From contig CAKQRQ010000010.1 in the NCBI GenBank assembly GCA_934271465.1, positions 951 through 64,950 of the forward strand: a DNA stretch of 64,000 nucleotides, read 5' to 3'. Position numbers and translations under genes: made by a program. The notes beneath the pieces were generated by a model. The model did no database searches. It had not been told where the DNA came from and was given only the letters and a program-made list of their open reading frames with translations. Source of the DNA: an uncultured Alphaproteobacteria bacterium (GTDB lineage: Bacteria > Pseudomonadota > Alphaproteobacteria > RF32 > CAG-239). This document shows, one piece after another, positions 3,764-54,466 of this stretch. Position 1 is the first letter of the stretch, and each line of letters starts with the position of its first letter.

Positions 3764-3884
3764 AACACCCAGCCAAATTATATTTTGTGTTACTTTATCA
3801 AGATGAGTTTTTCTGTCAAGGGGTGTTGATTTTTTTTATAAAATGTTTATGCTGAATAAAAATTTTATAAAAAAGGAGATAACC

Positions 3885-4337
3885 ATGTTAAGAGAAGAAT
3901 TACAAAACGGTTTAAAAACAGCCATGCTTGCCAAAGATACCCTGACAACAAACGCCATCCGTATGATTATTGCCGGACAAAAAGAAAAAGATGTTGAAGC
4001 CCGCGGCAAAGGACAGGAAAAAGCCACCGACACTGAACTTTTGTCTATGATGCAGGGAATGATTAAGCAACGCAACGATTCGATTAAAATGTTTATGGAC
4101 GGACACCGCCCCGAACTGGCCGAAAAAGAAAAAGCCGAAATAGCCGTTATTGAGCGCTTTTTACCCAAACAAATGAGCCCTGAAGAAATGGAAGCAGCCA
4201 TCAAAGCCCTTATCGCTGAAACAAATGCATCTTCAATGAAAGATATGGGAAAAATTATGGGCGCACTCAAAACCAAATATGCCGGACAAATGGACATGGG
4301 CAAAGCCAACGGCCTTATCAAAACATTGCTAAGCTAA
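3885..4337 (+). CDS. GatB/YqeY domain protein
   Basis: RBS aaggag precedes ATG at 3885; MLREELQNGLKTAMLAKD...ERFLPKQMSPEEMEAAIKALI is typical of the YqeY/GatB C-terminal domain family. Its stop overlaps the convergent trxB stop by 4 nt. Confidence 0.75.
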   Translation: MLREELQNGLKTAMLAKDTLTTNAIRMIIAGQKEKDVEARGKGQEKATDTELLSMMQGMIKQRNDSIKMFMDGHRPELAEKEKAEIAVIERFLPKQMSPEEMEAAIKALIAETNASSMKDMGKIMGALKTKYAGQMDMGKANGLIKTLLS

Positions 4338-5278
4338 TCTTGCCTTTTATTCAAAAACCGCTCGGCTTCGAGAGCCCCTATGGCTCCAGAGCCGGCGGCA
4401 ATAATTGCCTGCCTGTAATGAGGATTTTGAACATCGCCTGAAGCAAAAATTCCGGGGATACTTGTTTTACAAGTTCCCATAGTTGTTTTAATATAGCCGT
4501 CTTTGTCCAACTCCAAGTGGTTTTTGAAAACATCTGTATTGGGCTTGTGCCCTATGGCAACAAACACACCGGATACATCCAAAATTTCTTTCTTATCCGT
4601 CCGAACATTCTTAAGCCTGAGCCCTGTTACCCCTTTAGGATTATCCTGTCCCAAGACTTCCTCGACCACACAATTATACTTAATATTGATTTTGTGGTTT
4701 TGCGCCAACTGGTCAAATAAGGCTTTGTCTGCCCGCATTTGCTCGCGTCTGTGGACAATCGTTACCGAGCGAACAAAATTCGTCAAATAAATAGCTTCCT
4801 CAGCGGCCGAATTTCCGCCCCCGACAACAGCAACATGCTTATTTTTATAGAAAAAGCCGTCACAGGTAGCGCAAACAGACACCCCAAATCCTCTAAACTT
4901 ATCCTCTCCGGCAACATTCAGCCATTTAGCCGACGCCCCTGTCGCAATAAGAACAGCATCGGCATAAAAGGCATTATGGTTTTCTGAAGAACACTCAAAC
5001 GGACGATGGGCAAAGTCAACCTCAACAATAATATCATTGACCATTGTCACGCCGAGATTCAAAACTTGCTGCCGCATGGTTTCCATTAAATCTGAGCCTC
5101 TGACAGACCCGACAAACCCCGGAAAATTAGAAACATCTTCGCTCAAGGTCAATTGTCCGCCGACCTCAAAACCTGAAACCAATACCGGCGACAGTCCGGC
5201 GCGAGCAGCATAAATCCCTGCCGTATAACCGGCCGGACCGGAACCGATAATCAGAAGTTTTGTTTTATATTCAGCCAT
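4334..5278 (-). CDS. trxB: thioredoxin-disulfide reductase
   Basis: LLIIGSGPAGYTAGIYAARA FAD motif, CATCDGFF redox-active CxxC, and GGGNSAAEEA NADPH motif. Confidence 0.9.
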   Translation of the reverse strand: MAEYKTKLLIIGSGPAGYTAGIYAARAGLSPVLVSGFEVGGQLTLSEDVSNFPGFVGSVRGSDLMETMRQQVLNLGVTMVNDIIVEVDFAHRPFECSSENHNAFYADAVLIATGASAKWLNVAGEDKFRGFGVSVCATCDGFFYKNKHVAVVGGGNSAAEEAIYLTNFVRSVTIVHRREQMRADKALFDQLAQNHKINIKYNCVVEEVLGQDNPKGVTGLRLKNVRTDKKEILDVSGVFVAIGHKPNTDVFKNHLELDKDGYIKTTMGTCKTSIPGIFASGDVQNPHYRQAIIAAGSGAIGALEAERFLNKRQD

Positions 5279-22939: not shown

Positions 22940-24193
22940 TCAAAAATTATGCACCGGAACGCCAAACAGATTAAAATCATGTCTAAAGAGCATATCATCA
23001 AATTCTTCCCGATTCTTTCGATAAGCCATCACATCACTCAAGGGCGCCTCATAGGCCTTAATAATCCCCTGCATAAGCGAAAAACGAATAATGCTGGTCA
23101 AAGGGCTCACGCCCAATAACTGCCCGTCATAAAGCCCCCTTTTAAACCCTCTCAAACTTGCCACGACATCAGACCTGATATTAGCCAGCCGATACGCCTT
23201 AATGGATTTGTCACAAGTATAAGCCCATTCATTCAATGTAAAGCCGGATTTTCCGACAATCATGGCCAACTCGCGCTCTTTCCCGACAAGCCTTGTTTTT
23301 TGAACCAATCGAGCACAAGGATTAACCAAATCAGCCAACCCTGTCGGAACAAACCTGCCCCGTTCATCCTGTTTTTCATACAAAGACAGCATTGTTCCGA
23401 CTCTGGCCAATAAAAAAGCATTATTGTCATTATTAGCCCAATCTTCAACCGCATCTACCGTCGAAATAAAAGCTTTAATATCAGCGGCTGTCAAAATCGT
23501 ATCTTTATCAGGATACAACGTCCTCAAATCCGTTTTATCAAACTTTGCCTCGGCCTTATACCCCGGCATATATTTCTCCGGCGCAACCAGTTTTTTCAAC
23601 ACCGCATAAAACTGCGGATCATATTTGACCTTGGGATGATAAGGCGTCATTTGGGGCATTTCTATTTTTTCCCGATACCCCGGCCAAGCTTCCGGCATCA
23701 ACAAAAAATAATAAGACGGCGATAAAAATTCCAAATTTTCCACATCTTTAAGCTGCGACGCAATTCGGGTCGGAAACTTATTTTTAGTCTCCTTAATCCC
23801 CGGCAAATTCAAAACCTTATCCGACATATTCGGCACTTCCCAAAGCGCCGGCCCGACATATTGATAATATTTTTTTGGCAGCATCGCCAAAAACTCAAGA
23901 TACAAATCCTCACTGACGCCTTTCATCCGTTTTTCCTGTGTTCCATAAGCCGCAAGGGTTGTATAAAATTCCTGATCAAAATCATCCAGCAAATCATAAA
24001 AGCTGCCGTATTTTTTATTATAGTCATCTTCCTTTAGCAGAAGAACTTCCAATTCCGCCAAGGTTGGAAGCTTATCTTTTTCCAAATCAATATCAAAATA
24101 TCCCGCAAAATCAGACACGCCTGCACGCACCGCAGAGCAAAGCAGTATAACAAATATCACTATCGGTAGGATCATTTTACCTTTCAAAAGCAC
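22940..24193 (-). CDS. secreted hypothetical protein
   Basis: Signal peptide MILPIVIFVILLCSAVRA; 417 aa, no recognised domain. Confidence 0.5.
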   Translation of the reverse strand: MLLKGKMILPIVIFVILLCSAVRAGVSDFAGYFDIDLEKDKLPTLAELEVLLLKEDDYNKKYGSFYDLLDDFDQEFYTTLAAYGTQEKRMKGVSEDLYLEFLAMLPKKYYQYVGPALWEVPNMSDKVLNLPGIKETKNKFPTRIASQLKDVENLEFLSPSYYFLLMPEAWPGYREKIEMPQMTPYHPKVKYDPQFYAVLKKLVAPEKYMPGYKAEAKFDKTDLRTLYPDKDTILTAADIKAFISTVDAVEDWANNDNNAFLLARVGTMLSLYEKQDERGRFVPTGLADLVNPCARLVQKTRLVGKERELAMIVGKSGFTLNEWAYTCDKSIKAYRLANIRSDVVASLRGFKRGLYDGQLLGVSPLTSIIRFSLMQGIIKAYEAPLSDVMAYRKNREEFDDMLFRHDFNLFGVPVHNF

Positions 24194-24313
24194 CTCCGTT
24201 TTCTTTTGAGGATAAAAGAAGATACTTTAAAAATATTTAAAAGAGGCTGGACTCTCGCAAAATATTCTCGTATGATATTTCATAATAGTTTATTACAGAT
24301 AAGGAGATTCAAA

Positions 24314-24877
24314 ATGGCTTGGACTGATGAAATGGTCGAAGAGCTTAAAAAGCTTTGGGCAGAAGGCGTCACAACGGGAGAAATCGGCCGTCGGCTCAAT
24401 ATTTCAAAAAACTCTATTGTCGGGAAAGTTCACCGCCTAGGGCTTTCGGGTCGTCCGTCCCCCATCAAGAAAAAAGGAGATGAACCGGAAAAAGCCCCTA
24501 AAGCCAAATCTTCCGTAAAAGAAAAAGAGCCCAAAAAAGCCTCACCGGCCAAAACCTCTCAGGAAAAACCTAAAGAAGTCCAGCCCAAACTGGCTCCAAA
24601 AACCGAGCCCAAAGTTGAAAAGGCCCCTGCTCAGGTCAAGGCAACGCATCTTGAAGAAGACGATATCAAACTAGCCAAAAGCATCAACCCGGAAACAGAA
24701 AGTGCTGCCGGCAAAAAACATATTTCTTTGACAGAACTTGATAACCACACCTGCCGCTGGCCGATTGGCGATCCCAAAGACGAAAACTTTCACTTCTGCG
24801 GCCGCAAAATTCGTTTAGGTCAAACCTATTGCGAAGAACACGCCGCAATTGCCTATGTCAAACCTGGGAAAAAATAA
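24314..24877 (+). CDS. gcrA: cell-cycle regulator GcrA
   Basis: MAWTDEMVEELKKLWAEGVTTGEIGRRL..VGKVHRLGLSGR N-terminal domain, Lys/Pro-rich linker, and C-terminal CRWPIGDP..FHFCG..YCEEHAAIAY; an alphaproteobacterial hallmark. Confidence 0.85.
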   Translation: MAWTDEMVEELKKLWAEGVTTGEIGRRLNISKNSIVGKVHRLGLSGRPSPIKKKGDEPEKAPKAKSSVKEKEPKKASPAKTSQEKPKEVQPKLAPKTEPKVEKAPAQVKATHLEEDDIKLAKSINPETESAAGKKHISLTELDNHTCRWPIGDPKDENFHFCGRKIRLGQTYCEEHAAIAYVKPGKK

Positions 24878-25460: not shown

Positions 25461-26672
25461 ATGAAAAAACAAGTTTTATCAGTCTGTTGTGCCCTCTTAG
25501 CACTGAACGTTGCCTCATCGGCCAAAGCCGAACAACGTGCCAGCGCTGAGGAACAGGTTCATCGTTCGGAAATTTACCGCCATTTTGACTTCACGGACTT
25601 AGGAAAAGACTACACGGCTTTCAAAGACTACCTCCAAAACACTTACGGCTTTGATTACTCGCTGACCGCTTCCTTTACCGGACAATACGGCGCCCCGAGC
25701 GGCCACAACACAGCGCTTCAAACCATTTTATATCCGGCCTTTACATGGAATATGTTCAATAACGACTACGGAAACGCCGTTCTGAACTTTGCCTACAACA
25801 TTGTGCGCTACACCGGCGCCAACTCCGAAACCATCGACAACAATATCGGCGTTGCCACCGCCATCAATGATTATGATGAATTGACAAACGAATTTCCCGA
25901 ACTCTATGTGTCTTACCAACTCCCCGGAAAATACGATTGGCTGACCATCGGCCTTGGTCAATATCCGTTCTACAATTTTGACGGAACGACCTATGACGCC
26001 AACCAGCAGGAAAACTTTATCAACTGGACATTTTCTCAAAACGCCTCCTCAACTTATCCCACTGCGGGGCTCGGATCTTATGTCCAGATAACCCCGTCAA
26101 AAACATGGAGCTTTGCCGCAGGTTTCCAAGACGCAACAAACGTTGACGGCAATCGAATTTCAACCTCGAATCTTGATGAAAAACACTTTGCCACCTTTGG
26201 CTATGTCGCCTATACACCTTACCTTGCCAATCTGGGCGCCGGACAATATTCGTTTATGTATTACAACCAGCCATGGGTCGAAGCCCAACCGCAAACAACA
26301 AACGGCTGGTCGTTTAATGCCAACCAAAACTTAGGCGACAAATGGGCTATTTTCGGACGCGTCAACGGAGTCTCCGGCGAACAGGCCGAAATCGACACCT
26401 CTTATCTGCTGGGCGTGGTTATGAATAACCCGTTTGAACGCAACTCGTTAGATCAAATCGGATTCGCTGCCGCACTCAACCATATCAATGAAGATGCCGT
26501 CGGATCGCCCACCTCGCACAATTACGAAAAAGTTTTGGAATCTTACATCACATTCGGCGTTTCAAAATGGATGGCAATTACCCCTGATGTTCAAGTCTAT
26601 TTTGATCCGGCTCTTAATCCAAAATCAGACACAGCCTTTGCATTTTCTTTGAGGGCGACGCTGTTCTTCTGA
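25461..26672 (+). CDS. outer-membrane beta-barrel porin (OprB/carbohydrate-porin-like)
   Basis: Signal peptide, alternating aromatic beta-strand pattern, and a C-terminal ...LRATLFF ending in Phe. Confidence 0.6.
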   Translation: MKKQVLSVCCALLALNVASSAKAEQRASAEEQVHRSEIYRHFDFTDLGKDYTAFKDYLQNTYGFDYSLTASFTGQYGAPSGHNTALQTILYPAFTWNMFNNDYGNAVLNFAYNIVRYTGANSETIDNNIGVATAINDYDELTNEFPELYVSYQLPGKYDWLTIGLGQYPFYNFDGTTYDANQQENFINWTFSQNASSTYPTAGLGSYVQITPSKTWSFAAGFQDATNVDGNRISTSNLDEKHFATFGYVAYTPYLANLGAGQYSFMYYNQPWVEAQPQTTNGWSFNANQNLGDKWAIFGRVNGVSGEQAEIDTSYLLGVVMNNPFERNSLDQIGFAAALNHINEDAVGSPTSHNYEKVLESYITFGVSKWMAITPDVQVYFDPALNPKSDTAFAFSLRATLFF

Positions 26673-26779
26673 AAAAAAGCAAAAAAACTGTATAAAACTG
26701 GTCAATTTTTAAAAGTTTAGCTTTACAAAAAAACGTTTGACGCGCTAAATTAGGGCTGACAAAAAACGAAACAAATCTG

Positions 26780-27313
26780 ATGGCTAAACTGATGAAAAAA
26801 TTGACCTTTTTTATAACAGCGTTCTTATTAAGCGCCTGTCAAACCACACCCCCTGAAGAACTCCCCGCAACTCTGCCTGAAGAAGTTCCCTCTCCCGTTT
26901 ATACGGGAACTCCTGTTGTTGGGGGAATTGAGCCGGCTTATATTATACCCTTCAAAATGCCTTTTCATGCTCGAATGGACACCGGCGCGGAAACCTCATC
27001 GCTTGATGCCAAAAACATCCGCCCGTTTGAACGTGATGGCGAAAAATGGGTCTCTTTTGATATCATCAACCGCAAAAACGGCGAAAAACACCATTACCAA
27101 AAACCGGTTAAACGCAAAACAAATATCGTGCGCACCGGCGAAAAAGAACGCCGTTATGTTGTCCACATGGACATCAAATTTGGCAAAGAAATCATCAACG
27201 CTGAGTTTACACTCAACGACCGCGATAAATTCGACTATCAGGTTTTAATCGGCCGCAACATCATCAACGGCCGCTTTATCATTGACCCGAGTTTAGAAAA
27301 CACCATGCACTAA
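26780..27313 (+). CDS. retropepsin-like aspartic peptidase (DUF785/'ATP-dependent zinc protease' family)
   Basis: Lipoprotein-like leader; ARMDTGAETSS Asp-Thr-Gly active-site motif; LIGRNIINGRFIIDP C-terminus. Confidence 0.7.
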   Translation: MAKLMKKLTFFITAFLLSACQTTPPEELPATLPEEVPSPVYTGTPVVGGIEPAYIIPFKMPFHARMDTGAETSSLDAKNIRPFERDGEKWVSFDIINRKNGEKHHYQKPVKRKTNIVRTGEKERRYVVHMDIKFGKEIINAEFTLNDRDKFDYQVLIGRNIINGRFIIDPSLENTMH

Positions 27314-27327
27314 AGGCCTGAACTAAA

Positions 27328-28848
27328 ATGAAAAACTTTTTTTCCGTCCGTTTGATTCTGACATTTTTCCTTATTCTGTCTCTGGCTTTTGCCGGATACA
27401 GCATTTTTTACAAAATCAAATATTGGGGATTCAGCATCTCTCCTCATCAAAACGCCAATGTTTGGGCTATTGAGGCTCACATCGGATTTACCGCCGACGG
27501 ATCCCCGATAAAAGTCAGCCTTGGCATTCCTCCTAAAAACAAAGGTTTCAAAATTTTGGAAGAAAACATCATTGCCAACGGATACAGGACTCAAAAACTG
27601 GCAGATAAGATTGTCTTCAGAGCGCGCAATATGATTGGCGAGCAGGATTTATATTACAAAATTATGGTTTTTGACAATACCATCGGCAAAGATAAACTTT
27701 GGGATAAAGCCCCTTCAAAACCCGAAAAGCCCCTATTGGATGAAAAACGTCTGGCTCAGGCCGAACAGATTTTGTCCTTATCGCAAAGACAAGCCGGAGC
27801 AGATAAAATCGCCAAGCTGATTACTTTTTTCAACCAAGAACCTCTTGATCCGGCGCTCAAATCTTATCTGCCTGTGCAATACAGCCCCAAAACAAAACTG
27901 GAAATGATGCAGGAACTTTTGGCGATTCGCGGCATCTCCACCCGAACGGCGCGCGGTCTAAAACTTGAAGAAGGTCAAAAAGTAACGCCTGATTTAATGA
28001 TGGAAGCCTATGTTGACGGCGCATGGCGGATTTATGACCCCGTCACGGCCGAACAAGGACTTCCGGAAAATTTCCTGCTCTTCCAACGCGGCGGAGATTC
28101 TTTGCTGGATGTTGAAGGCGGAACAGACTCTTTTGTTAAATTCTCTTTGCAAAAATCAATTACCTCGACCATGAATTTAGCCAGCCGCCGTGCCAAGTTG
28201 AGCACTAAAGCCGGCTGGTTCGACTATACGATTTACAATCTGCCTCTGGCTCAACAAAACACGCTCAAATGGCTCTCCATCTTTCCAATTGGCATTTTGA
28301 TTGTGGTTTTGATGCGAAACGTCATCGGCGTTCAAACTATGGGCACCTTTACCCCCATGCTGATTTCCATGGCTTTGGTCAAGACGGGTTTTGTCATAGG
28401 ATTAATCTGTTTTATCGCAATTATTATGCTTGGACTGTGTATCCGATTCGTCATGTCAAAATTCAACCTGCTGCTGGTTCCGAGAATCTCGGCTGTGGTC
28501 ATCTTTGTCATTTTGATTATTCATGCCATGACATTCTTAGGCTACAATTTTAACATCAAAGTTGCTCAAGCCTCGGTCTTTTTCCCGATTATCATTACCG
28601 CTTGGATTATTGAGCGCGCCTCCATCACATGGGAAGAAGACGGCCCATGGAACGCCGGAAAAGAGCTGTTTAACAGTCTGCTGGTCGGTATTATCGTTTA
28701 CTTTATCATCAGCAACGAATATATCCGCCATGTAATGTTTGTTTTCAACGAGCTTAATCTGGTCATTTTGTTCATTGTGATGCTTTTGGGCACTTACACG
28801 GGCTACCGTCTGACCGAACTCAAACGTTTTGCCCCGTTGGTCAAATAG
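27328..28848 (+). CDS. inactive-transglutaminase-like domain fused to 7TM membrane domain (UUP1 family)
   Basis: N-terminal TM segment, about 280-aa periplasmic domain, and C-terminal 7 predicted TM helices; conserved partner of the flanking peptidase and ATP-grasp genes. Confidence 0.6.
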   Translation: MKNFFSVRLILTFFLILSLAFAGYSIFYKIKYWGFSISPHQNANVWAIEAHIGFTADGSPIKVSLGIPPKNKGFKILEENIIANGYRTQKLADKIVFRARNMIGEQDLYYKIMVFDNTIGKDKLWDKAPSKPEKPLLDEKRLAQAEQILSLSQRQAGADKIAKLITFFNQEPLDPALKSYLPVQYSPKTKLEMMQELLAIRGISTRTARGLKLEEGQKVTPDLMMEAYVDGAWRIYDPVTAEQGLPENFLLFQRGGDSLLDVEGGTDSFVKFSLQKSITSTMNLASRRAKLSTKAGWFDYTIYNLPLAQQNTLKWLSIFPIGILIVVLMRNVIGVQTMGTFTPMLISMALVKTGFVIGLICFIAIIMLGLCIRFVMSKFNLLLVPRISAVVIFVILIIHAMTFLGYNFNIKVAQASVFFPIIITAWIIERASITWEEDGPWNAGKELFNSLLVGIIVYFIISNEYIRHVMFVFNELNLVILFIVMLLGTYTGYRLTELKRFAPLVK

Positions 28849-28857
28849 GGAGCCGCA

Positions 28858-29805
28858 ATGTTTAACCTGTTCAAAAACTTTGCTTCGCCGAAAAAATTAA
28901 GAGAAAAAGGCATTTTAGGAATGAATGCGCGCAATTACGATGTAATCTCGCATTACAATTCCCGCCGCCTTTACCCGTTGGTCGATGACAAAGTCCAGAC
29001 CAAAACGTTAGCCCTGAAAAACGGCGTTAAGACTCCTAACCTAATTGGTGTAATCGAACATCAATTTCAGGTCAAAAACATTTTGGAAATGGTCAAAGGC
29101 CGCACGGAATTTGTGGTTAAACCCTCGCACGGTTCGGGCGGAAAAGGCGTTCTGGTTATCAAAGGTTTTACCGAGGACAGCTTTACAATTCCCTCAGGCA
29201 GACAAATTTCTTATAATGACTTGTATCAACATATTTCAAATATCTTGAGCGGACTTTATTCTTTGGGCGGACAATATGACACGGCGCTTGTGGAAGAAGT
29301 CGTCCATTTTTCAGACATTTTCAAAGATTACAGCTATCAGGGCGTGCCTGATGTTCGTGTGATTGTCTACAAAGGTTTTCCGATTATGGCCATGACCCGC
29401 CTCTCCACGGCCGAATCCGGCGGACGAGCCAATCTACACCAAGGCGCGGTCGGCGTCGGGTTAGACATCAAAACAGGCAAAACAAAAAAAGCCGTTCAGC
29501 ACAACCGTCCGATTTTATATCACCCCGACACAAAAGCCGATTTGCGCAAAATTGAAGTTCCTTTGTGGAAAGAACACCTGTTGATTGCCGCCAAAGCCTA
29601 TGAAATGACCGGCTTGGGGTATTTTGGCGCGGATATCGTCCTTGATGCGCAAAAAGGCCCGATGATGCTTGAGCTCAACGCCCGCCCCGGTCTGGCCATT
29701 CAAATTGCCAATGGTCTCGGACTCAAAAAAGCTATCAAAAAAGTCGATAAATCTTTTCCTGAAGGTTTGTCGCCGGAAGAACGCGTTGAGTTTATTTTGG
29801 GCTGA
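28858..29805 (+). CDS. alpha-L-glutamate ligase-like ATP-grasp protein (RimK-related)
   Basis: ATP-grasp fold motifs (KPSHGSGGKGV, ...ELNARPGL). Confidence 0.7.
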   Translation: MFNLFKNFASPKKLREKGILGMNARNYDVISHYNSRRLYPLVDDKVQTKTLALKNGVKTPNLIGVIEHQFQVKNILEMVKGRTEFVVKPSHGSGGKGVLVIKGFTEDSFTIPSGRQISYNDLYQHISNILSGLYSLGGQYDTALVEEVVHFSDIFKDYSYQGVPDVRVIVYKGFPIMAMTRLSTAESGGRANLHQGAVGVGLDIKTGKTKKAVQHNRPILYHPDTKADLRKIEVPLWKEHLLIAAKAYEMTGLGYFGADIVLDAQKGPMMLELNARPGLAIQIANGLGLKKAIKKVDKSFPEGLSPEERVEFILG

Positions 29806-29873
29806 AATTTTGCATTTTGCGTTTTGAATACCTATATAAATAACAGAAAAAGTTATCCTAAGGAGAAAAAACA

Positions 29874-30485
29874 ATGTCAGAAACAAAACAACTCAAAAAC
29901 AATGAAGCTAAAAAGCTGAGTGACAAAAAAACAAAAGGCCTGCCCAAAGAAGAAACAAAAAAGCTTGAGCAAAGCAAAACGCGCGCCAAAAAGATTAAAC
30001 ACTCCTACAAAGTCAAAGACGCCGAAAACGCTATTTTATTAAAACTCAAAGACGGCGATGTCATTATTGAAATGTATCCCGACGCTGCTCCGAACCACGT
30101 TGCCCGTATCAAAGAGCTTGTCCGCAGCGGCTTTTACAACGGTCTCAAATTTCACCGCGTTATTGACGGATTTATGGCGCAGACCGGCTGCCCCTATGGC
30201 ACAGGTACAGGCGGTTCAGGCAAAAAATTAAAAGCTGAATTTAACCGCAACCCTCACAAACGCGGCACGGTTTCCATGGCGCGTTCCATGATGCCGGATT
30301 CCGCAGACAGCCAATTCTTCATCTGTTTTGCCGATTGCCCTTGGCTTGACGGGCAATATACCGTCTGGGGCGAAGTCACATCCGGCATGGAATATGTCGA
30401 TATGATTAAAAAAGGAAGCGGCGCTAACGGCGAAGTTTCAAAACCCGATGAAATTATTTCAATGACGGTTGTCGCTGATATCTAA
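29874..30485 (+). CDS. cyclophilin-type peptidyl-prolyl cis-trans isomerase with Lys-rich N-terminal extension
   Basis: Strong RBS aaggag; FHRVIDGFMAQTG...GTVSMAR...SQFFI cyclophilin motifs, preceded by about 50 aa of K/E-rich sequence. Confidence 0.85.
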   Translation: MSETKQLKNNEAKKLSDKKTKGLPKEETKKLEQSKTRAKKIKHSYKVKDAENAILLKLKDGDVIIEMYPDAAPNHVARIKELVRSGFYNGLKFHRVIDGFMAQTGCPYGTGTGGSGKKLKAEFNRNPHKRGTVSMARSMMPDSADSQFFICFADCPWLDGQYTVWGEVTSGMEYVDMIKKGSGANGEVSKPDEIISMTVVADI

Positions 30486-30524
30486 AAAAATTTTAAGGCT
30501 CTCTTTTCACGGAGAGCCTTTATT

Positions 30525-30851
30525 TTAATCCTCATCTTTATCCTCTGTCTCATCTTCTTCCGCCGAAGAGAACAAAATCCGCCACAAAGGCTTGCGGTAA
30601 ATCCATAAATTAAACACGCCGAGCACCACCGAAATCATCCCGAACAGATACAAAAAATAATACCAATTCAGCTGGTCGGCATTCATCATCACGTCTTGCT
30701 GCCCTGCTCTGATAAAAGCAATGGCAACCGAGGTCACGGAAAAAGAAATCACAAAAGCAATCGCCCAAATTTTTTCTCTGGTGCGTTCATTTAAGAAAAA
30801 TGCCGTAATCAAATAAAACAGCAAAAAGGCAAAAAACAAATATAATTCCAT
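30525..30851 (-). CDS. hypothetical small membrane protein with acidic C-terminus
   Basis: Three predicted TM helices; C-terminal EEDETEDKDED. Confidence 0.4.
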   Translation of the reverse strand: MELYLFFAFLLFYLITAFFLNERTREKIWAIAFVISFSVTSVAIAFIRAGQQDVMMNADQLNWYYFLYLFGMISVVLGVFNLWIYRKPLWRILFSSAEEDETEDKDED

Positions 30852-30973: not shown

Positions 30974-31354
30974 TTAAGCAACATCGGCACACGCAAAGAT
31001 CAAAAGACCTCCGTATGCAGATGCAATTGTCTGCCAGACAAGCGGATTCCATCCGAATATGCCCCAAATCCATTGGAAAAGCATATTAAAAAAGCAGAAT
31101 CCGGCAACAAGAGCATAAGTCCTGGGACCGTTCTCCTGCACCAATCCGGCCAATAACACAAAATAACCAAAACCCCACCAGCCACTCTTGACTGCGCAAA
31201 AAACGCCGAACGCCAAGAAGAGTAAAGCCAGCAGGTTATTGCCTATCTTGCGTCCTTTTCTAAAAAATGATACCAATACGGCGAAAAGGAGAATTCCGTA
31301 AGGCAGTATATTTATATCCATAATTATAATTTTTAGAATTATAGTATACCACAA
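30974..31354 (-). CDS. hypothetical membrane protein
   Basis: Hydrophobic, W/G-rich TM segments. Confidence 0.35.
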   Translation of the reverse strand: MWYTIILKIIIMDINILPYGILLFAVLVSFFRKGRKIGNNLLALLFLAFGVFCAVKSGWWGFGYFVLLAGLVQENGPRTYALVAGFCFFNMLFQWIWGIFGWNPLVWQTIASAYGGLLIFACADVA

Positions 31355-43601: not shown

Positions 43602-43686
43602 TGGTGCGGGCGAAGGGACTTGAACCCCCACTCCTTACGGAACCAGATCCTAAGTCTGGCGCGTCTGCCAGTTCCGCCACGCCCGC
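43602..43686 (-). tRNA. tRNA-Leu (anticodon UAG)
   Basis: Reverse complement GCGGGCGTGGCGGAACTGGCAGACGCGCCAGACTTAGGATCTGG...GGGGGTTCAAGTCCCTTCGCCCGCACCA folds with a 7-bp acceptor stem, long variable arm, anticodon loop CTTAGGA, and terminal CCA. Confidence 0.85.
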
Positions 43687-46131: not shown

Positions 46132-46256
46132 TTGATGCCTCTGTAAAAATAAATAAACCCAACTGTGACAAGTTATAATTTGAATATACATAACCGTCAA
46201 TATTTAAAATATAATTACCTTGGCAAAAATTTTTGGAAAGAAAAGAGTGTGGTAAA

Positions 46257-47204
46257 CTAAATTTTCTGCAAAAGTAATTTCTTATAATATTTAGGCAAAA
46301 AAACAAAACCATAACTTTTTGCCAAAAATTTACGCACCTTATAAAAAGGAATAGTTTTCAGAAGTTTTGCAATTTTTTCTATCCGACTTACAAGTTCTGG
46401 ATGACGATAAATACTCCCAGAATAAGTCATCGTGCAAATACCGTTATAGCGTTTTTTGTATTCATAATCACCGCCCAATAAATAAGCTTTTTTCTTATGA
46501 TTATTAATCCAGCTCTCAATAATATTATGATAAAGAACCATTCCGATAGAGTATTTAGAATACTCAAGGTCATAGGCAAAATTTTCAAAATAGACATTTT
46601 CTTTATTTGTCTCTGAATCAAAACCGATAGCTATAATTTTACTGCCAGTTTTCAATAAATATGCATTAGAAACGCCAAAATCTTTTAAATACAAATTAGG
46701 ATCATATGAAAAATCGTGAGATATTTTTTTCCAAGATAAATACAAATCAACAATATCTTGAGAAATCATTTCTTTCTCTATTTTTTCAAAACAAATATTT
46801 CCAACCTCTGTCAACAACTTTTTGGCATAATATCTGGCATGTTGTCTTTCTTTTCCCGAAAGTTGAGCATCAAATTCCTCAATAGTTTGAGGCAAATCAA
46901 TATGCCAATGCGGCGCCGCTTTAATAGTTGAAAAAGGAGTATAAGTATGCAAAATAGAAATTTCTAAAATATTAGAATTCGAAGAAAACACATAATTCGC
47001 AAACTCTAGCAAATTTTCTTTTCCTATATTTCTCAAATACAATCCAGCCAGACAAACATTGCCCTGCAAATGAATCGGAATCAATATTCCACTATCTAAC
47101 TCAACTAAATTATAATCTGTTCCAAATAGTAAATCAAATCTGTTATGTATAACATCAGGATCTATATTAAACAGCTTTGCTTTTAACAATTTCGCCATCA
47201 TCAA
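46257..47204 (-). CDS. putative FemAB/CelD-like (GNAT-fold) acyltransferase
   Basis: 315-aa AT-rich ORF; weak resemblance to Acetyltransf_6/FemAB family; C-terminal IPFYKVRKFLAK motif. Confidence 0.35.
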   Translation of the reverse strand: MMMAKLLKAKLFNIDPDVIHNRFDLLFGTDYNLVELDSGILIPIHLQGNVCLAGLYLRNIGKENLLEFANYVFSSNSNILEISILHTYTPFSTIKAAPHWHIDLPQTIEEFDAQLSGKERQHARYYAKKLLTEVGNICFEKIEKEMISQDIVDLYLSWKKISHDFSYDPNLYLKDFGVSNAYLLKTGSKIIAIGFDSETNKENVYFENFAYDLEYSKYSIGMVLYHNIIESWINNHKKKAYLLGGDYEYKKRYNGICTMTYSGSIYRHPELVSRIEKIAKLLKTIPFYKVRKFLAKSYGFVFLPKYYKKLLLQKI

Positions 47205-47229
47205 TCTCTAAATAATTAAATTTACAGTT

Positions 47230-48186
47230 CTAATATTTTAAAAATAGCTTAAATTTTTTTCTGATTTTCTTTATCGGAAAAAGACAAACAACAGGCCTTA
47301 AAATCAACTTAATAAACGACATAAATAGCAATTTATATTTAATCTTGTTCAAATCAATACATAAACTCTGCAATGCGCACAATAACTCTCTTTGCACTTT
47401 AAATACTTCCTCATCACTAATATCATAATTTTTAACAAGATTATTCAAATCCGCTTCACAAAATTCATAATTCGATAAATCTAAAGGTTCCTTTTGTTTA
47501 TTAAATACAGAATAGTAATCATAAAATTTATAGCGGCTAGTTGTTTCTTCTGAAATCCTAACCCACTGATTGGGAATACGTAAAGCATCACACGCTATTA
47601 GCGGATGCATCGCCGTAGAAATAACGGCTTTACACTCACACATATCATGCAAAAATTTGTCAACAGAAAGCGTAGCATCTAAAATTTTGGAATTTGGTAT
47701 ACGCCCCGTAATTTTGGAAAAAACTTTGCTATCTCTATCTGCATAATGAGGCACTATTCCTAATTCATATTTCTTTTCAATCTTATCAGAATCAATAAGG
47801 TAACTAACTAACAAACCACCATCACCTAAAACAGCTCCAGTCGAATGGCCTAACATTTTAGATATACGAGCCTCCGTTAATTTACCACGAAGAGCATAAC
47901 ACTTTACATTACGCCTTAATTTTTCTGGTAAAATAATATTAGGATTATGAAAAAATTTTCCCTCCTCAAAGCCTATACCCGTAGAAAATAACCAAATAGG
48001 GTTTTCTTTAAATATATGGTCTTTAGTATCCATTAAGAGCATATCGCCTAAAGAACCTATTCCCATAATCATCGCAAAATCCACAGGAGCAAATCTAATT
48101 TTAATTTTTGCTAATTTAGAAAAAATAATAGGATTCAAAGCATCTCCAAAATTAGGTATATCACAGTAAAAAAAAGGAATTTTCAT
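47230..48186 (-). CDS. polysaccharide pyruvyl transferase family protein
   Basis: N-terminal FFYCDIPNFGDALNPIIF is typical of PS_pyruv_trans (CsaB/WcaK-like); C-terminal FPIKKIRKKFK motif. Confidence 0.6.
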   Translation of the reverse strand: MKIPFFYCDIPNFGDALNPIIFSKLAKIKIRFAPVDFAMIMGIGSLGDMLLMDTKDHIFKENPIWLFSTGIGFEEGKFFHNPNIILPEKLRRNVKCYALRGKLTEARISKMLGHSTGAVLGDGGLLVSYLIDSDKIEKKYELGIVPHYADRDSKVFSKITGRIPNSKILDATLSVDKFLHDMCECKAVISTAMHPLIACDALRIPNQWVRISEETTSRYKFYDYYSVFNKQKEPLDLSNYEFCEADLNNLVKNYDISDEEVFKVQRELLCALQSLCIDLNKIKYKLLFMSFIKLILRPVVCLFPIKKIRKKFKLFLKY

Positions 48187-48224
48187 TATATTTTCTCCAA
48201 ATTTTATAAAAAAATAATTTGCTG

Positions 48225-48812
48225 TTATTTCAAATAATTTTTAAAAATATCCTCTCTAACCCACTCTCTTGGCAATTCATTCACTTGAGGATAACTCATA
48301 CAAGCCTCATCCAAATTGTCATAATTTAACTTATCTCTCCACCCAACTATTTTAGCAGGATTGCCTGCTACTATAGCATACTTGGGAATACTTTTAGTTA
48401 CAACACTACCTGCACCAACAATTACACCATCATCTATTTTTACTCCACCTAATATGATACATCTAACACCTATCCATACGTTTCGGCCAATTTCGACATG
48501 TCTCAATAAACCTATATGATCATAGGGAATGCGCGTAGAACTCTTATAATTATGACAGGTAGTGAGAATTAAAGAATCTTCTCCTAACTTCGAATATTCA
48601 CCTATTGAAATCCCCCCCTCAGCATACAATTTACATCCCCTTCCTATATACACATTACCACCAAGTTCAATGTTTTCAATAAACCGACATTCTGCTGTTG
48701 GTTCAATAACATTTTCCTTGTAAATTTTTGGCAAATGTTCTTTTTTGTATTCAATTTGTAGTTTTTTACGAATTTTCTTTAATGGTATTAAATTTATCAT
48801 CCATTTTTTCAT
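48225..48812 (-). CDS. hexapeptide-repeat (LbH) O-acetyltransferase
   Basis: Left-handed beta-helix repeats (NVYIGRGCKL, IGRNVWIGVRCIILGGVKIDDGVIVGAGSVV); N-terminal LIPLKKIRKKL motif. Confidence 0.75.
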   Translation of the reverse strand: MKKWMINLIPLKKIRKKLQIEYKKEHLPKIYKENVIEPTAECRFIENIELGGNVYIGRGCKLYAEGGISIGEYSKLGEDSLILTTCHNYKSSTRIPYDHIGLLRHVEIGRNVWIGVRCIILGGVKIDDGVIVGAGSVVTKSIPKYAIVAGNPAKIVGWRDKLNYDNLDEACMSYPQVNELPREWVREDIFKNYLK

Positions 48813-49555
48813 AATTTGCCTTTCAAATACCTTGTGATAGGAATGAGTCTAAATGCCTCAGCATAATTTACATTATTCGCCATACACCCCCTATAAATAT
48901 TCAATCCCAATATGCGTGGAATTAAATTATATTTTACCCATTGCGATTTATACAACTTTAGAGCTTGTTTTTTTACAGAGACAACCTGTGAGATATCTTC
49001 ATAATAATTTGGAGATTTAAGAGGAGACCAAACTTCATAAAAGCCTATAATTGTATCTTTATTATAGCCTTTTCTACGTATAATTTCTTTAGCAAGAACA
49101 TTTGTTATGTATTTATGTTCTATATGTTCATCATAAGGATTAGGCAAAAAAATATAATCATACCTTAATATATCTAACACAGCACAATAATCTTGAAACA
49201 TTTCGTTAATTTGATCAATAAAGGGAGGCTTTCCAAAAGTTTTAAATATCCACCTATTTTGAACCCCCAACATATCCATAACTTTGTTAAATTCCACAAT
49301 CCTAATATCAGCCCGTTCTTCAGCTTGAATATCTCCATAAGCAACCCCTGAGCTTGAAACACAACAAACATCAAAATTTTTAGTATATTTAATAAGCATT
49401 CCTCCCATCCCTAGCATTTCATCATCTGGATGAGGAGCAATCAAAAGACATCGTGTATCACTTTCTATGCTTAAATCAATGTGACGAAAATAATATTTTC
49501 GTAGTTTATGCCTTAATTTCTTATTAGGAATAAAATTTATTAACCACTTCCACAC
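48809..49555 (-). CDS. PIG-L/LmbE family N-acetylglucosaminyl deacetylase
   Basis: LLIAPHPDDEMLGMGG motif; N-terminal FIPNKKLRHKL motif. Confidence 0.75.
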   Translation of the reverse strand: MWKWLINFIPNKKLRHKLRKYYFRHIDLSIESDTRCLLIAPHPDDEMLGMGGMLIKYTKNFDVCCVSSSGVAYGDIQAEERADIRIVEFNKVMDMLGVQNRWIFKTFGKPPFIDQINEMFQDYCAVLDILRYDYIFLPNPYDEHIEHKYITNVLAKEIIRRKGYNKDTIIGFYEVWSPLKSPNYYEDISQVVSVKKQALKLYKSQWVKYNLIPRILGLNIYRGCMANNVNYAEAFRLIPITRYLKGKL

Positions 49556-49567
49556 AATACAAACCCC

Positions 49568-50527
49568 TCATCTTTTCACATTATATAAAGACTTGCGCAT
49601 TCTTTTTAATTTTTTGCGAAAAGTTTTTATCGGCATTAATTTTAAACAGAGCCACAAAAAAAACGACTTAAGATAAACAATGTTTGTCGGAAAAAAATAA
49701 TCTTTGTTATAAAAAGGTGAAGTTTCAATATATGAAAAATATTCTTTTGATATTTCAGTATATGCTCTATTCCATATTTTAGGATTCCTTCCAGCATAGT
49801 GAATAATTTTAGGATTAGCCTTTGCTTCCTGAAGCTCTGCATCAGAATACACATGTGAAAGCCAAGGATACTCAGGAGCTAAATTTATAGGGTAATCAAA
49901 TATATTCTCCAAAACACAATAATTAAAAGGTATTTCCAAAATCTTATCAACAGACAAATTCAAAACATCTAAGTCAAACATTTTTAATTCTGAGTTAAAA
50001 TCCTTTATAGTCTGAAAAAAACGCGAAAGCATATTTTTATTTCGCCATTGTTTAGCATTTATAAGCATAAAACCAGACATATAAATATACGGTTTGGAAT
50101 TTGACTTGAAATGCGTATGAACACCATTCTTTTCATCCTGCCGTTCAGCTACAACCCCTGCCCAATCATAATCAGATAAATCCATATTATATATCTCTGT
50201 CAAATCTCCACGAAATAAAACATCAACATCTGACCAAATTATTTTATCATATTCTTTAACAACATCCGCAATAAGCAATCTATAATAAACAGATATTGGC
50301 CAATTCTCTGAGATTGGTGCATTAGAAAAAAAATCACATACTTTAATCCATCTAATATATGGACATACGCACCCCATTTTGGAAATTGTCTTTTCACTCA
50401 AATTTCCATATAATACAATTATGTCATATTCTGTATCAAAGTTCCTATGTTTTAATAAAGATGAAATAGCAATACTTGCGGGAAGAGCATACCTATCATC
50501 AAAAGCAAAAACTATGGGTATTTTCAT
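49568..50527 (-). CDS. glycosyltransferase family 8
   Basis: IVFAFDDRYALPASIAISSLL, YYRLLIADV..., DVDVL (DxD); C-terminal MPIKTFRKKLK motif. Confidence 0.75.
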   Translation of the reverse strand: MKIPIVFAFDDRYALPASIAISSLLKHRNFDTEYDIIVLYGNLSEKTISKMGCVCPYIRWIKVCDFFSNAPISENWPISVYYRLLIADVVKEYDKIIWSDVDVLFRGDLTEIYNMDLSDYDWAGVVAERQDEKNGVHTHFKSNSKPYIYMSGFMLINAKQWRNKNMLSRFFQTIKDFNSELKMFDLDVLNLSVDKILEIPFNYCVLENIFDYPINLAPEYPWLSHVYSDAELQEAKANPKIIHYAGRNPKIWNRAYTEISKEYFSYIETSPFYNKDYFFPTNIVYLKSFFLWLCLKLMPIKTFRKKLKRMRKSLYNVKR

Positions 50528-51672
50528 TGTGAAAGAATCTCCTTAAAATTATTTAAACTTTCCATTTTCAACCGTTCAAACAATTGCATAAGAAATATTT
50601 GTTTTTTCTTATATCCTTGCTGATCAATTGTGATAGCTTCTTGCATACCTTTAGTTAAATCTTTTGAAATTATTGCATTTTCATTATCAAAACCATAAAA
50701 TGGTGCAAAATGTGGATGTATGACAGGAATCTTTCCAAATGCATATATAAGTTGAGCCGAACCAGTAACTCCGGTAGTAATGTAACGATTATGTTCAAAA
50801 TTTTCAGGATTTAACAACGGCAAATAAAAATCAGCTTCTTCCATATATCTAAACATCTCTGAAAAATTCAAACGTCCCGTTATTTCAATATATGAACGAA
50901 TTTCTTCTGGTAAATTTTCCAATTTACCTTTGCCAACGACAACAACCTTAAAATTTTGCTTTAACGCAACTAATTCTTTAATCGCCGAAATCAATTTCTG
51001 ATGATCTTTACGTTCTTGTTGTATTCCTCCAACACATATAAATACGGTCTTTTTTCCTTTTTGTGTTATATTAATACTTCCAAACAAAAGCGGAGAAGCA
51101 AACACTGTTTGAGGGAAATGTCCCAAAGTTATGAGATGTTTTTGTTTGCAGAAAGAACGTTCATTAAAACGGTTTATATCATTTAAATCATGTTCTACAA
51201 TAAACAATGAATGGTGCTTTCTCAACTGTGGATAATAATTTAATACGGACATATACATACCATTAACGCAATAAAAATAAGCAGCTGAGCTCATTAGAAT
51301 AATATGTTTATATTCATAAAATTTTCTAGATGCCAAAAAAAACTTCATCAATGAAAAATCGGACATAAAAACAAAAACATTTGAAATATCTAAACGACAA
51401 AATGGATTTTCTTTTACTATTATCGGATTTACAAGTATATCAACATTATATCCAATATCTTGAAAATATTTCAAATAACCGCCTATAACCTCCCCATGAG
51501 TATTATTTACTTCAACAAGTAATACACTATTTTTCCTCGTTTTCATCTTTAAAAATTTATACAAATTGCAAAAATCCTGTATATTTAAATGCATTAAATA
51601 ATTACGAAAATAGCGACGTTTATTTCTATTAAAAATAAGGAACGTTAACAACCTCGCAATAAACTTTTTCAT
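50524..51672 (-). CDS. glycosyltransferase family 1 (GT4-like)
   Basis: C-terminal GT-B nucleotide-binding motif (ICVGGIQQERK...EADFYLPL...TGVTGSAQLI). Confidence 0.65.
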   Translation of the reverse strand: MKKFIARLLTFLIFNRNKRRYFRNYLMHLNIQDFCNLYKFLKMKTRKNSVLLVEVNNTHGEVIGGYLKYFQDIGYNVDILVNPIIVKENPFCRLDISNVFVFMSDFSLMKFFLASRKFYEYKHIILMSSAAYFYCVNGMYMSVLNYYPQLRKHHSLFIVEHDLNDINRFNERSFCKQKHLITLGHFPQTVFASPLLFGSINITQKGKKTVFICVGGIQQERKDHQKLISAIKELVALKQNFKVVVVGKGKLENLPEEIRSYIEITGRLNFSEMFRYMEEADFYLPLLNPENFEHNRYITTGVTGSAQLIYAFGKIPVIHPHFAPFYGFDNENAIISKDLTKGMQEAITIDQQGYKKKQIFLMQLFERLKMESLNNFKEILSQ

Positions 51673-53024
51673 GCCTTCCCCCACTGTTCTAATATCCAAG
51701 AAGATGAATTCATTTTACTGCTTCCGCCAACTCCAAAAGCTAAATCCACATGGCATTCCTCACATACCGGATGTTCCGGTATATTATCTTTTCCCCTATC
51801 TCCACCATTTGCAAAGACCAAATGTATATTAGGATATTTAACTTTAGCTTTTCTTATTCCGTCACTTGCTGAGCCATCAGAATCATCAAATTCAATAACA
51901 TCCACAACGCCTTTAAGGTTTTCTAAAATCGATTTCCGTGTCTGTATTGAATAAAAATTTTTTCCTTTTTTTCGTTTTAACCATTCATCAGAATTAACTA
52001 AAACTATCACCCCATCTGAAGCGGACGAAGCGGCCTTTATCATTTCTATATGTCCCTCGTGAATAGGATCGAAGCCACCTGACACAATGTAATAAGTTAA
52101 CTTTGAATTGTTTTTTAATAAAAACAACTTTTTCAAAAAGTTAAGAATCGTTTGTTTAAAAATTCTTCTAGAACGTTTTCTAATTAGTCTGTCTGACAAT
52201 GATGTCTGTTGCAAAAGCCCCTTAACCTTCAAAAAATCTTTTGGATCCATTTTTTTGATATTCAAAAAATTTATTATACAAAAATCACTTAAAGCTCTTT
52301 TATCTTCCTCTAAACAAGCTTTTTTTCTCGCAAAATCCATAATCATTCTGAAAATAGAAATACTGTCCTGTATACGCTTAATTTCTTTTGCGGGATCTCG
52401 TGTTGTGCTATTCGGATTACAAACATAATTATATCCAGAACCATCTATAACTGAAAACTTATCAGAATAAAACAAAGCATTAATAACAAATAAATTATCT
52501 TCCCAATAAAGCCCTTCAGGAAAAATAATTTGATTATTTTTAATAAGGTCAATTTTATATATTTTATCCCAAACACCACCATGAGGCAAAACTTTAACTT
52601 TATCTGAAAATTTTGTTAAAATTTTATGCCCAAAGTGAGTCTGTTTAACACTCTTTCTCTCAACATATTTTGTATTTGTCATAACAATATCGGCATTTAC
52701 ATATTGAGCTTCAGTAAACAAATCCATCAAAAATTCAGCATCATAAAAGTCATCAGAATCTAAAAAACAAACATATTGACCAGAAACTAGCTTAAGTGCT
52801 CTATTACGAGCAGCAGCCTGACCTTGATTCTCCTGTGTCACAACCTTTATTCGAGAATCTTTTGCAGCATATCGATTCAAAATTTCAACACTGCCATCTG
52901 TCGACCCGTCATTAACAACAATCGCTTCCCAGTCTTGAAATGTCTGAGCCAAAACAGAATCCAGACATTTTGCAACATACTTTTCGCAATTATAACAAGG
53001 GATAATTACCGAAATCTTAGGCAT
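51669..53024 (-). CDS. family-2 glycosyltransferase fused to C-terminal cytidylyltransferase-like (HIGH-motif nucleotidyltransferase) domain
   Basis: N-terminal ISVIIPCYNCEKYVAKCLDSVLAQTF...FLDSDD GT2 motifs; C-terminal YYIVSGGFDPIHEGHIEMI nucleotidyltransferase motif. Confidence 0.75.
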   Translation of the reverse strand: MPKISVIIPCYNCEKYVAKCLDSVLAQTFQDWEAIVVNDGSTDGSVEILNRYAAKDSRIKVVTQENQGQAAARNRALKLVSGQYVCFLDSDDFYDAEFLMDLFTEAQYVNADIVMTNTKYVERKSVKQTHFGHKILTKFSDKVKVLPHGGVWDKIYKIDLIKNNQIIFPEGLYWEDNLFVINALFYSDKFSVIDGSGYNYVCNPNSTTRDPAKEIKRIQDSISIFRMIMDFARKKACLEEDKRALSDFCIINFLNIKKMDPKDFLKVKGLLQQTSLSDRLIRKRSRRIFKQTILNFLKKLFLLKNNSKLTYYIVSGGFDPIHEGHIEMIKAASSASDGVIVLVNSDEWLKRKKGKNFYSIQTRKSILENLKGVVDVIEFDDSDGSASDGIRKAKVKYPNIHLVFANGGDRGKDNIPEHPVCEECHVDLAFGVGGSSKMNSSSWILEQWGKA

Positions 53025-53889: not shown

Positions 53890-54466
53890 GGACGCCCTCC
53901 TGAGTAATACTCTGATTTTTCTTGATATAGGCAAGGAGCGAGGTGTAGCCGCAGCCAAGTTCGGCCGCCAGCTGGCGTTTGCTCATGCCGGTTGACAGAC
54001 GCTGCTTAATCAGCTTGTCCTTATCCGCCAAAGATGCCATTTGATTATCGCCCTTAAACGGTCGACCGCGCTTTTTGCCTGATTTCAGCAAATTTTCTTG
54101 AATATTCTTGTTTTTGACTGACAAAACGGACTTATAAAGTTGCAAACAAATTTGAGCTGTCGTGTCAAAAGCCTGCGGCATCATGGTGTCAATTTGTAGA
54201 TTATTGCCGACGATATAAATTCGCACACCGCGCTGCGCCAACCGGCTGACCGACTGAATAACTTCTTCAAAACCGTTACCCAAAGCCCTCACATCTTCAA
54301 TCATAAAGACATCACCGGAATGCAGGCGCGATAAATTGGCCTCACTTAAAGCTTGAGCTTTGATAAACCGCTGAATGGTAAAATTGCAGGTGTGAGCATA
54401 CTCAAACAACAAACACTCTTGCTGCTTGCCCGATAGTCCCGTTTTATTTATAAATGCCGCTATCAT
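53882..54466 (-). CDS. small serine-recombinase (resolvase/invertase)-like protein, non-canonical active site
   Basis: 194 aa. Resolvase-like N-terminal domain (..GLSGKQQ.. aligned to RVSTxxQ; RLHSGDVFMIEDVRALGNG aligned to GDTLVVWKLDRLGRS; RLAQRGVRIYIV) and C-terminal HTH (MSKRQLAAELGCGYTSLLAYIKK). Two conserved catalytic Arg appear substituted. Confidence 0.55.
   Translation of the reverse strand: MIAAFINKTGLSGKQQECLLFEYAHTCNFTIQRFIKAQALSEANLSRLHSGDVFMIEDVRALGNGFEEVIQSVSRLAQRGVRIYIVGNNLQIDTMMPQAFDTTAQICLQLYKSVLSVKNKNIQENLLKSGKKRGRPFKGDNQMASLADKDKLIKQRLSTGMSKRQLAAELGCGYTSLLAYIKKNQSITQEGVRA

Follow-up and report, generated by a model that had tools for sequence, protein, structure and literature searches.

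An uncultured gut or rumen alphaproteobacterium with an rloABC operon, the retropepsin-like osmotic stress tolerance system

A 64,000-nucleotide (nt) stretch of contig CAKQRQ010000010.1, referred to here as the window, was analyzed with a focus on positions 26780-29805, where three adjacent genes are encoded on the plus strand. A sequence-only reading of this DNA had proposed such a triad, and the three open reading frames (ORFs) were found exactly where it had placed them, at 26780-27313 (177 amino acids, aa), 27328-28848 (506 aa) and 28858-29805 (315 aa). The gaps between them are 14 nt (rloA-rloB) and 9 nt (rloB-rloC), and the ORFs on the opposite strand within this region are all short. 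It is close to certain that the triad is the rloABC operon, the retropepsin-like osmotic stress tolerance system, of an uncultured gut or rumen alphaproteobacterium. The three genes are the following.

26780..27313, plus strand: rloA, retropepsin-like aspartic peptidase, predicted lipoprotein (PF05618)
27328..28848, plus strand: rloB, predicted inner-membrane protein with an N-terminal transmembrane (TM) helix, a periplasmic, catalytically dead transglutaminase-like domain and a C-terminal bundle of seven TM helices (7TM) (PF14400 and PF14402)
28858..29805, plus strand: rloC, predicted cytoplasmic RimK-related ATP-grasp ligase, alpha-L-glutamate ligase-like (TIGR02291)

The sequence-only reading had described the products as an aspartic peptidase with a DTGA motif, a membrane protein with a periplasmic transglutaminase-like domain and 7TM helices, and an alpha-L-glutamate-ligase-like ATP-grasp enzyme. 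Profile searches with TIGR02291, PF05618 and PF14400/PF14402 gave positive matches throughout, with E-values that chance could not plausibly produce, and confirmed all three descriptions. The NCBIfam names obtained for the first two proteins were RloA, RloA2, RloA3, RimB and RloB, and these names led to the rloABC operon described by Lormand et al., which in Pseudomonas aeruginosa comprises PA14_41690, PA14_41710 and PA14_41730 (Lormand et al., mBio 2025, PMC12239564).

RloA matches PF05618 with an E-value of 1.2e-33 (116 bits, cut-off 27) and carries the active-site motif D67-T-G-A70, each residue of which is at least 95% conserved in the clade. It also matches the NCBIfam models of RloA3, RimB, RloA2 and RloA at 5e-30 to 2e-18 (RimB at 8e-21), every one below its narrow cut-off. 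The RloA, RloA2 and RloA3 models are narrow and Pseudomonas-centred, with equivalog cut-offs of 210-280 bits, against which 104, 72 and 67 bits were scored. The nearest solved structures by sequence are 9g58 (E 1e-14), 9g59 (4e-12) and Legionella 2pma. The first two, whose deposited name is 'putative ATP-dependent zinc protease domain-containing protein', are probably the two RloA crystal structures of Lormand et al. (PMC12239564). When aligned via PDB homologues, R65, R125 and R148 correspond to Pseudomonas K46, R114 and R137, which coordinate poly-Glu and whose mutation abolishes both poly-Glu cleavage and complementation (PMC12239564). All three residues are at least 95% conserved in 80 orthologues, and R or K is found at the same columns in Aeromonas and Legionella. 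From these residues, RloA of the window would be expected to cut poly-Glu as the Pseudomonas enzyme does.

A lipobox, LLSAC (Cys20), follows a hydrophobic N-terminus in 80/80 orthologues, a sequence pattern that implies export, and RloA is probably a lipoprotein. As the orthologues begin with MKK, translation of rloA probably initiates at the ATG at 26792 (M5). After the lipobox comes a linker of about 25 residues, which in the window copy is rich in Pro. The residue next to the lipobox Cys is never Asp in the sequences inspected; under the sorting rule of E. coli lipoproteins, the lack of Asp after Cys leads to an outer-membrane anchor, and such an anchor is suggested for RloA as well. A Cys pair reported to form a disulfide is conserved in periplasmic RloA orthologues (PMC12239564). 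This pair is absent from RloA here, whose sole Cys is that of the lipobox, and a Cys after DTG is lacking in 78 of the 80 clade orthologues. Among distant RloA sequences, 6 of the 35 examined contain the pair, which is therefore not universal.

The N-terminus of RloA was observed to be highly variable across lineages. The distant metagenome loci (L127-L168) include forms with a plain signal peptide and two Cys after DTG, forms with a lipobox, and forms with a long extension and no obvious signal; the 262-aa RloA of Aeromonas likewise has a long N-terminal extension without an obvious signal. The idea that a lipoprotein RloA is a novelty of the clade was rejected, since a lipobox also occurs in the distant loci L129, L145 and L156.

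RloB matches PF14402 with an E-value of 2.3e-80 (270 bits) and PF14400 with 1e-24 (88 bits). The NCBIfam RloB model NF052267 is matched over its full length at 1.3e-84, with 285 bits, under a cut-off of 900 that is an exception-level value for the P. aeruginosa protein. In the predicted topology, residues 9-27 form a TM helix and residues 28-316 a periplasmic domain of 289 residues, with a helical bundle at the C-terminus. No Cys is present in residues 28-316, and no Cys is invariant in that domain across 68 homologues. An AlphaFold2 model was built from 68 homologues (mean predicted local distance difference test score 76), and the top PDB match of its periplasmic part in Foldseek was 3isr, a transglutaminase-like putative cysteine protease (E 1e-8). 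The membrane part and its loops contain long invariant motifs (TMGTFTPM, NLLLVPRIS, FPIII.AW, IERASI.WEEDG and LGTYTGYRL.ELKRF), which suggest that it has an active membrane function beyond that of a simple anchor. The envelope setting that had been proposed for the triad is also borne out.

RloC matches TIGR02291 with an E-value of 1.2e-125 and 418.8 bits, above the curated cut-off of 314.2, over model positions 1-308 of 317. Its other Pfam matches are PF14397 (6.7e-87, the top one) and PF08443 (6.5e-14). The ATP-grasp residues K88, the G92-G97 loop, E146, N192-L-H-Q-G196, D259, E272 and N274 are invariant in 83 sequences, and the segment of the magnesium site aligns with E. coli RimK, an enzyme that is able to produce free poly-alpha-glutamate. 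The match to RimK begins at about RimK residue 95 and covers the central and C-terminal parts only, with a short conserved segment of about 40 residues replacing the RimK N-terminal domain. The thresholds of the RimK models are not reached (TIGR00768, 57 bits vs 143; PRK10446, 26 vs 331). RloC is 55% identical to the protein encoded directly 3' of rloB in Aeromonas and 48% identical to that in Legionella.

The gene neighbourhood had been called a conserved one, reportedly first described in the comparative genomics of Iyer et al. in 2009, and this conservation is evident. The order A-B-C on one strand was found in 67/67 metagenome loci with all three genes detected and in about 80 species genomes of the clade. 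It is also shared by Aeromonas caviae and Legionella adelaidensis, the only two matches in a plasmid collection, which were used as gammaproteobacterial comparators. The persistence of this order across very distant loci supports the view that the three genes form one functional unit. RloB-like proteins fall into about 380 clusters at 50% identity (E <=1e-30), and the family is thus moderately large. All of the closest relatives are metagenome-assembled genomes from the guts of humans, ruminants and birds, belonging to uncultured Alphaproteobacteria of the CAG:495 and Candidatus Scatocola type. A 99% identical RloB is encoded on contigs from human gut metagenomes (L088), and one metagenome co-assembly contig (L108) is 99-100% identical over all five genes, that is, the triad and its two flanking genes. 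GcrA, SpoT and RpoZ are encoded nearby, which fits the Alphaproteobacteria.

The flanking genes and the candidate transcription signals around the triad are the following.

25461..26672, plus strand: OprB/AaxA-like porin (PF04966 at 5e-15), clade-specific neighbour
26722..26751, plus strand: rloABC promoter-like site, TTTACA, 18-nt spacer, TAAATT, with an A/T-rich stretch 5' of the site
29810..29838, plus strand: conserved cyclophilin promoter-like motif, TTGCAT, 17-nt spacer, TATATA
29874..30485, plus strand: cyclophilin peptidyl-prolyl isomerase, ppi (PF00160 at 1.9e-44, residues 57-199), clade-specific neighbour
30495..30520, no strand assigned: bidirectional terminator-like hairpin 3' of the cyclophilin gene, 10-pair stem followed by a T-run

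The promoter-like site of rloABC scored 9/12 in a consensus scan. Of about 60 relatives inspected, nearly all keep CTTTACA 5' of rloA, followed about 17 nt later by TAAAT or TAATT, irrespective of whether the porin gene is the one directly upstream, and TTTACA-N18-TAAATT is a candidate for the rloABC promoter. A second conserved motif, CTTGTATAAAAnTGG, was observed in 26680-26720, about 30 nt 5' of the -35-like element of rloA, in closer relatives only (L006-L016, L025-L028); it may be a regulator-binding site. In the spacer between rloC and ppi, TACCTATATAA is retained in nearly all relatives compared (about 40 loci), and TTGCAT is kept in the closer ones. The pattern is rare in the window, with 2 matches vs 0.12 expected. 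The ribosome-binding site of ppi, AAGGAG, lies 7 nt 5' of the ATG. The hairpin downstream has a folding energy of -16.1 kcal/mol and a z-score of -4.75. A terminator scan gave no terminator-like site between rloC and ppi, and an Rfam search gave no RNA element in or near the operon, its sole matches in the window being two distant transfer RNAs (tRNAs). Because rloABC and ppi have their own promoter-like motifs and a strong hairpin follows ppi, the porin gene, rloABC and ppi look like three separate transcription units.

The sequence-only reading had taken the adjacent porin and a cyclophilin with an unusual extension as a sign of envelope or peptide signalling roles. Both genes do flank the triad as described; they are its neighbours in the clade only. 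Among curated models, the porin best matches that of chlamydial AaxA in NCBIfam (3e-86, below its cut-off), the match to the OprB family of Pfam being much weaker. AaxA is the outer-membrane porin of the chlamydial arginine-agmatine exchange system. The extension of the cyclophilin (29874-30041, residues 1-56; about 55 aa) consists of lysine-rich 8-residue repeats, roughly TKxLxxxE. It is 50-79 aa long in relatives with a varying number of repeat copies, and is closed just before the core by an invariant TRAKKIKHSY; the basic tail as such is conserved clade-wide. Searches by sequence against solved structures gave no match for either the porin or the cyclophilin extension. Since the cyclophilin has no signal peptide, it is a cytoplasmic and not an envelope protein.

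Conservation of these neighbours was tabulated in 80 species genomes of the clade, where each was sought within 4 kb. The cyclophilin gene lies 3' of the triad on the same strand in 79/79 genomes, within 300 bp in 72 of them, and the porin gene lies 5' of rloA in 70/77; the outer flanking genes, used as a control, are kept in just 15-21 of 62-63. Among metagenome loci whose RloB is at least 49% identical, the cyclophilin is present in 18/21 and the porin in 21/28. Where RloB is 32-39% identical, the cyclophilin was found in 0/22 and the porin in 0/24 evaluable loci. Aeromonas caviae and Legionella adelaidensis have neither a cyclophilin gene downstream nor a porin gene upstream, both neighbours are missing in three loci of the wider clade, and in some genomes unrelated genes, for Nudix, flavodoxin-like or HD-domain proteins, separate rloC from ppi. 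Counting the porin and cyclophilin as parts of the system was rejected because they are absent from all evaluable distant loci, have their own promoter-like motifs and do not always directly adjoin the triad, other genes having been inserted in some cases. They are clade-specific neighbours and possibly functional.

Links to two-component systems have been reported for RloA proteins, with CreBC for Pseudomonas RloA2 and with VxrAB for Vibrio (PMC12239564). One of the three wider-clade loci without porin and cyclophilin (L122) recalls these links: its rloABC (rloA at 5420) is divergent from genes for a BOF (YgiW-like) periplasmic protein, an OmpR-type response regulator and a sensor kinase, with coordinates 4149-5167 and 2805-4148 on the minus strand.

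Further observations concern the rest of the window. The gcrA ORF at 24206-24877 has a listed TTG start, but Pfam matches it only from residue 37 (MAWTDE...) onwards, and translation probably begins at an ATG at about 24314. Conserved hypothetical proteins without a Pfam or NCBIfam match are encoded on the minus strand at 22940-24193, 30525-30851 and 30974-31354. The 417-aa hypothetical protein stays beside gcrA in close relatives, and the 108-aa and 126-aa ones resemble small membrane proteins. A block at 46200-54000 on the minus strand, between tRNA-Leu (43602-43686) and tRNA-Gly (54734-54807), has a guanine-cytosine content of about 30%, compared with about 44% elsewhere. It encodes GT2, GT8 and GT1 glycosyltransferases, a hexapeptide acyltransferase, a PIG-L deacetylase, a pyruvyl transferase and a GNAT-like protein. 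The block resembles a variable locus for surface polysaccharide and may have been gained by horizontal transfer.

What is known of the function of the system comes mainly from Pseudomonas. Lormand et al. showed RloA to be a dimeric retropepsin-like aspartic peptidase that is secreted and in vitro cuts runs of at least eight Glu (PMC12239564). P. aeruginosa without all three RloA paralogues dies in hypo-osmotic medium, and the triple deletion also harms biofilm formation, beta-lactam resistance and cell shape; deletion of rloB or rloC rescues the defects of the triple protease mutant (PMC12239564). In Shewanella vesiculosa, disruption of a gene annotated as inactive-transglutaminase-7TM leads to over-production of membrane vesicles (PMC12096838). 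A literature search gave no later work on the biochemistry of RloB or RloC beyond the 2025 paper. The statement of the sequence-only reading that no function is known thus no longer applies to RloA and the phenotypes, and still applies to the chemistry of RloB and RloC. Its suggestion of a peptide-linked signal receives no support from that paper or from the present analysis.

Taken together, these data point to a model in which RloC makes alpha-linked Glu chains, RloB brings them to the periplasm and RloA cuts them, and we consider this whole scheme fairly probable. RloC, as a cytoplasmic relative of RimK, would use ATP to build the chains, either free or on an acceptor. RloB would carry or present the product at the periplasmic face, acting as an exporter or as a binding scaffold, and RloA, as a membrane-tethered dimeric lipoprotein, would cut runs of at least eight Glu, as its conserved residues suggest. 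Such cutting would prevent the build-up of a harmful, non-diffusing polyanion in the envelope, and the overall role of the system may be the tuning of envelope properties such as osmotic tolerance, cell shape and vesicle release. On the polyanion model, loss of the protease should be toxic only with RloB and RloC present, and worse at low external osmolarity, which agrees with the Pseudomonas genetics, where protease loss is lethal in low salt and loss of rloB or rloC rescues. The parts of this scheme differ in firmness: the export signal of RloA, the predicted periplasmic placement of the RloB domain and the intact catalytic residues of RloA and RloC can be read from the encoded proteins themselves.

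Several points weigh against the identification or the model. The Rlo models of NCBIfam were matched below their species-narrow cut-offs, and the functional data all come from Gammaproteobacteria, whose proteins are just 33-55% identical to those encoded here. Lormand et al. found no physiological substrate (PMC12239564). Foldseek returned zero PDB matches for the TM bundle of RloB, and hence no structural relative that would indicate transport. PF14397, the top Pfam match of RloC, is ATPgrasp_ST, a family named after its association with sugar transfer. The acceptor of RloC may also differ from that of RimK because the N-terminal domain of RimK is missing.

The main rival to a free polymer is the polyglutamylation of tails, in which RloC would modify a specific envelope protein or a peptidoglycan- or lipid-linked component, RloB would present the target and RloA would trim the tails, like RimK and RimB on ribosomal protein S6. 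RloA cuts polyglutamylated RpsF in vitro as efficiently as RimB, and this option is named by the authors themselves; in the same study, Pseudomonas rimB showed no genetic interaction with the rloA genes (PMC12239564). The cell-shape and beta-lactam phenotypes point to the cell wall (PMC12239564), and RloB carries the invariant acidic loop IERASI.WEEDG. Against this stand the facts that no polyglutamylated periplasmic protein is known, that a cytoplasmic ligase would have to act on its target before export, and that nothing in the window identifies an acceptor. We judge tail polyglutamylation to be unlikely, although it deserves weight. The 'sugar-transfer associated' label of Pfam, being that of the top match of RloC at 6.7e-87, would instead favor an ATP-grasp enzyme that amidates a surface polysaccharide; a related alternative, from the sequence-only reading, is an enzyme that makes a peptide signal. 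The more specific TIGR02291 match and the RimK homology indicate glutamate ligation, the partner protease is specific for poly-Glu (PMC12239564), no glycosyltransferases are encoded in or adjoining the operon, and a gene for a precursor peptide was looked for in vain among the genes seen. Both options, amidation of a polysaccharide and signalling by a peptide, find little support and are very improbable.

A further proposal, which we regard as improbable, is that the porin and the lysine-tailed cyclophilin work with RloABC as a five-gene module in the gut clade. In its detailed form, which we hold to be just as doubtful, tethered RloA would cut exported poly-alpha-glutamate to pieces of about four residues that leave through the OprB/AaxA-like porin, and the lysine-rich cyclophilin tail would bind the nascent polyanion or RloC. 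The near-constant presence of both neighbours in the species genomes, set against the poorly kept outer flanks, speaks for it, as do the clade-wide basic tail and the terminator scan that found no site between rloC and ppi. It is opposed by the 22-24 distant loci, Aeromonas and Legionella, none of which has the neighbours, by the three wider-clade loci without either, by the genes inserted between rloC and ppi, and by the conserved promoter-like motif that each neighbour has of its own; the gene order may simply be inherited within the clade. If the module were real, its two additional genes would be clues to what RloB and RloC physiologically produce.

Returning to rloABC proper and the model of Glu chains made by RloC, brought out by RloB and cut by RloA, the locus shows that the Rlo system, studied so far in Pseudomonas only, also occurs in a widespread group of uncultured Alphaproteobacteria of gut and rumen and has kept all its critical residues there. 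The variants of RloA anchoring (lipoprotein, signal peptide with Cys pair, long N-terminal extension) and the neighbouring genes offer comparative leads on the product of RloC and the role of RloB. The current understanding of the system is unchanged by the copy described here.

Compared with known systems, the triad shares with RimK and RimB (rimABK, polyglutamylation of ribosomal protein S6) the pairing of an ATP-grasp glutamate ligase with a poly-Glu-trimming retropepsin-like peptidase, and RloA matches the RimB model and RloC the RimK family models, below cut-off. RimK and RimB differ in that both are cytoplasmic, act on RpsF and have no RloB-like membrane protein. No RloA paralogue, rimB or rimK (a second PF05618-like or ATP-grasp gene) was found within the 64-kb window, the rest of the genome being outside the scope of the search. 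The poly-gamma-glutamate system of Bacillus, PgsBCA or CapBCA with PgdS or CapD, is similar in combining a cytoplasm-facing ATP-dependent Glu ligase, externalising membrane components and an extracytoplasmic hydrolase. Its proteins belong to unrelated families (Mur-ligase-type PgsB; DL-endopeptidase or GGT-type hydrolases), its linkage is gamma and its hosts are Gram-positive; the likeness is one of analogy only.

The closest counterpart is rloABC of P. aeruginosa, with which the gene order, the tight spacing and the domain architecture of all three proteins are shared. An exported RloA with the DTGA active site and the poly-Glu-coordinating Arg/Lys residues, an RloB with a Cys-free transglutaminase-like domain and 7TM bundle, and an ATP-grasp RloC are found in both. 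The host here is a gut alphaproteobacterium and not a gammaproteobacterium, and identity to gammaproteobacterial homologues, with Aeromonas and Legionella as stand-ins, is about 33% for RloA, 30-35% for RloB and 48-55% for RloC. RloA of the window also differs in having a lipobox and a linker of about 25 aa and in lacking the Cys pair, and the neighbouring genes for a porin and a cyclophilin are retained in the clade. The system is already named and partly characterised, and is seen here in an unstudied lineage with some variant features, namely a predicted lipoprotein RloA without the Cys pair and clade-specific neighbours.

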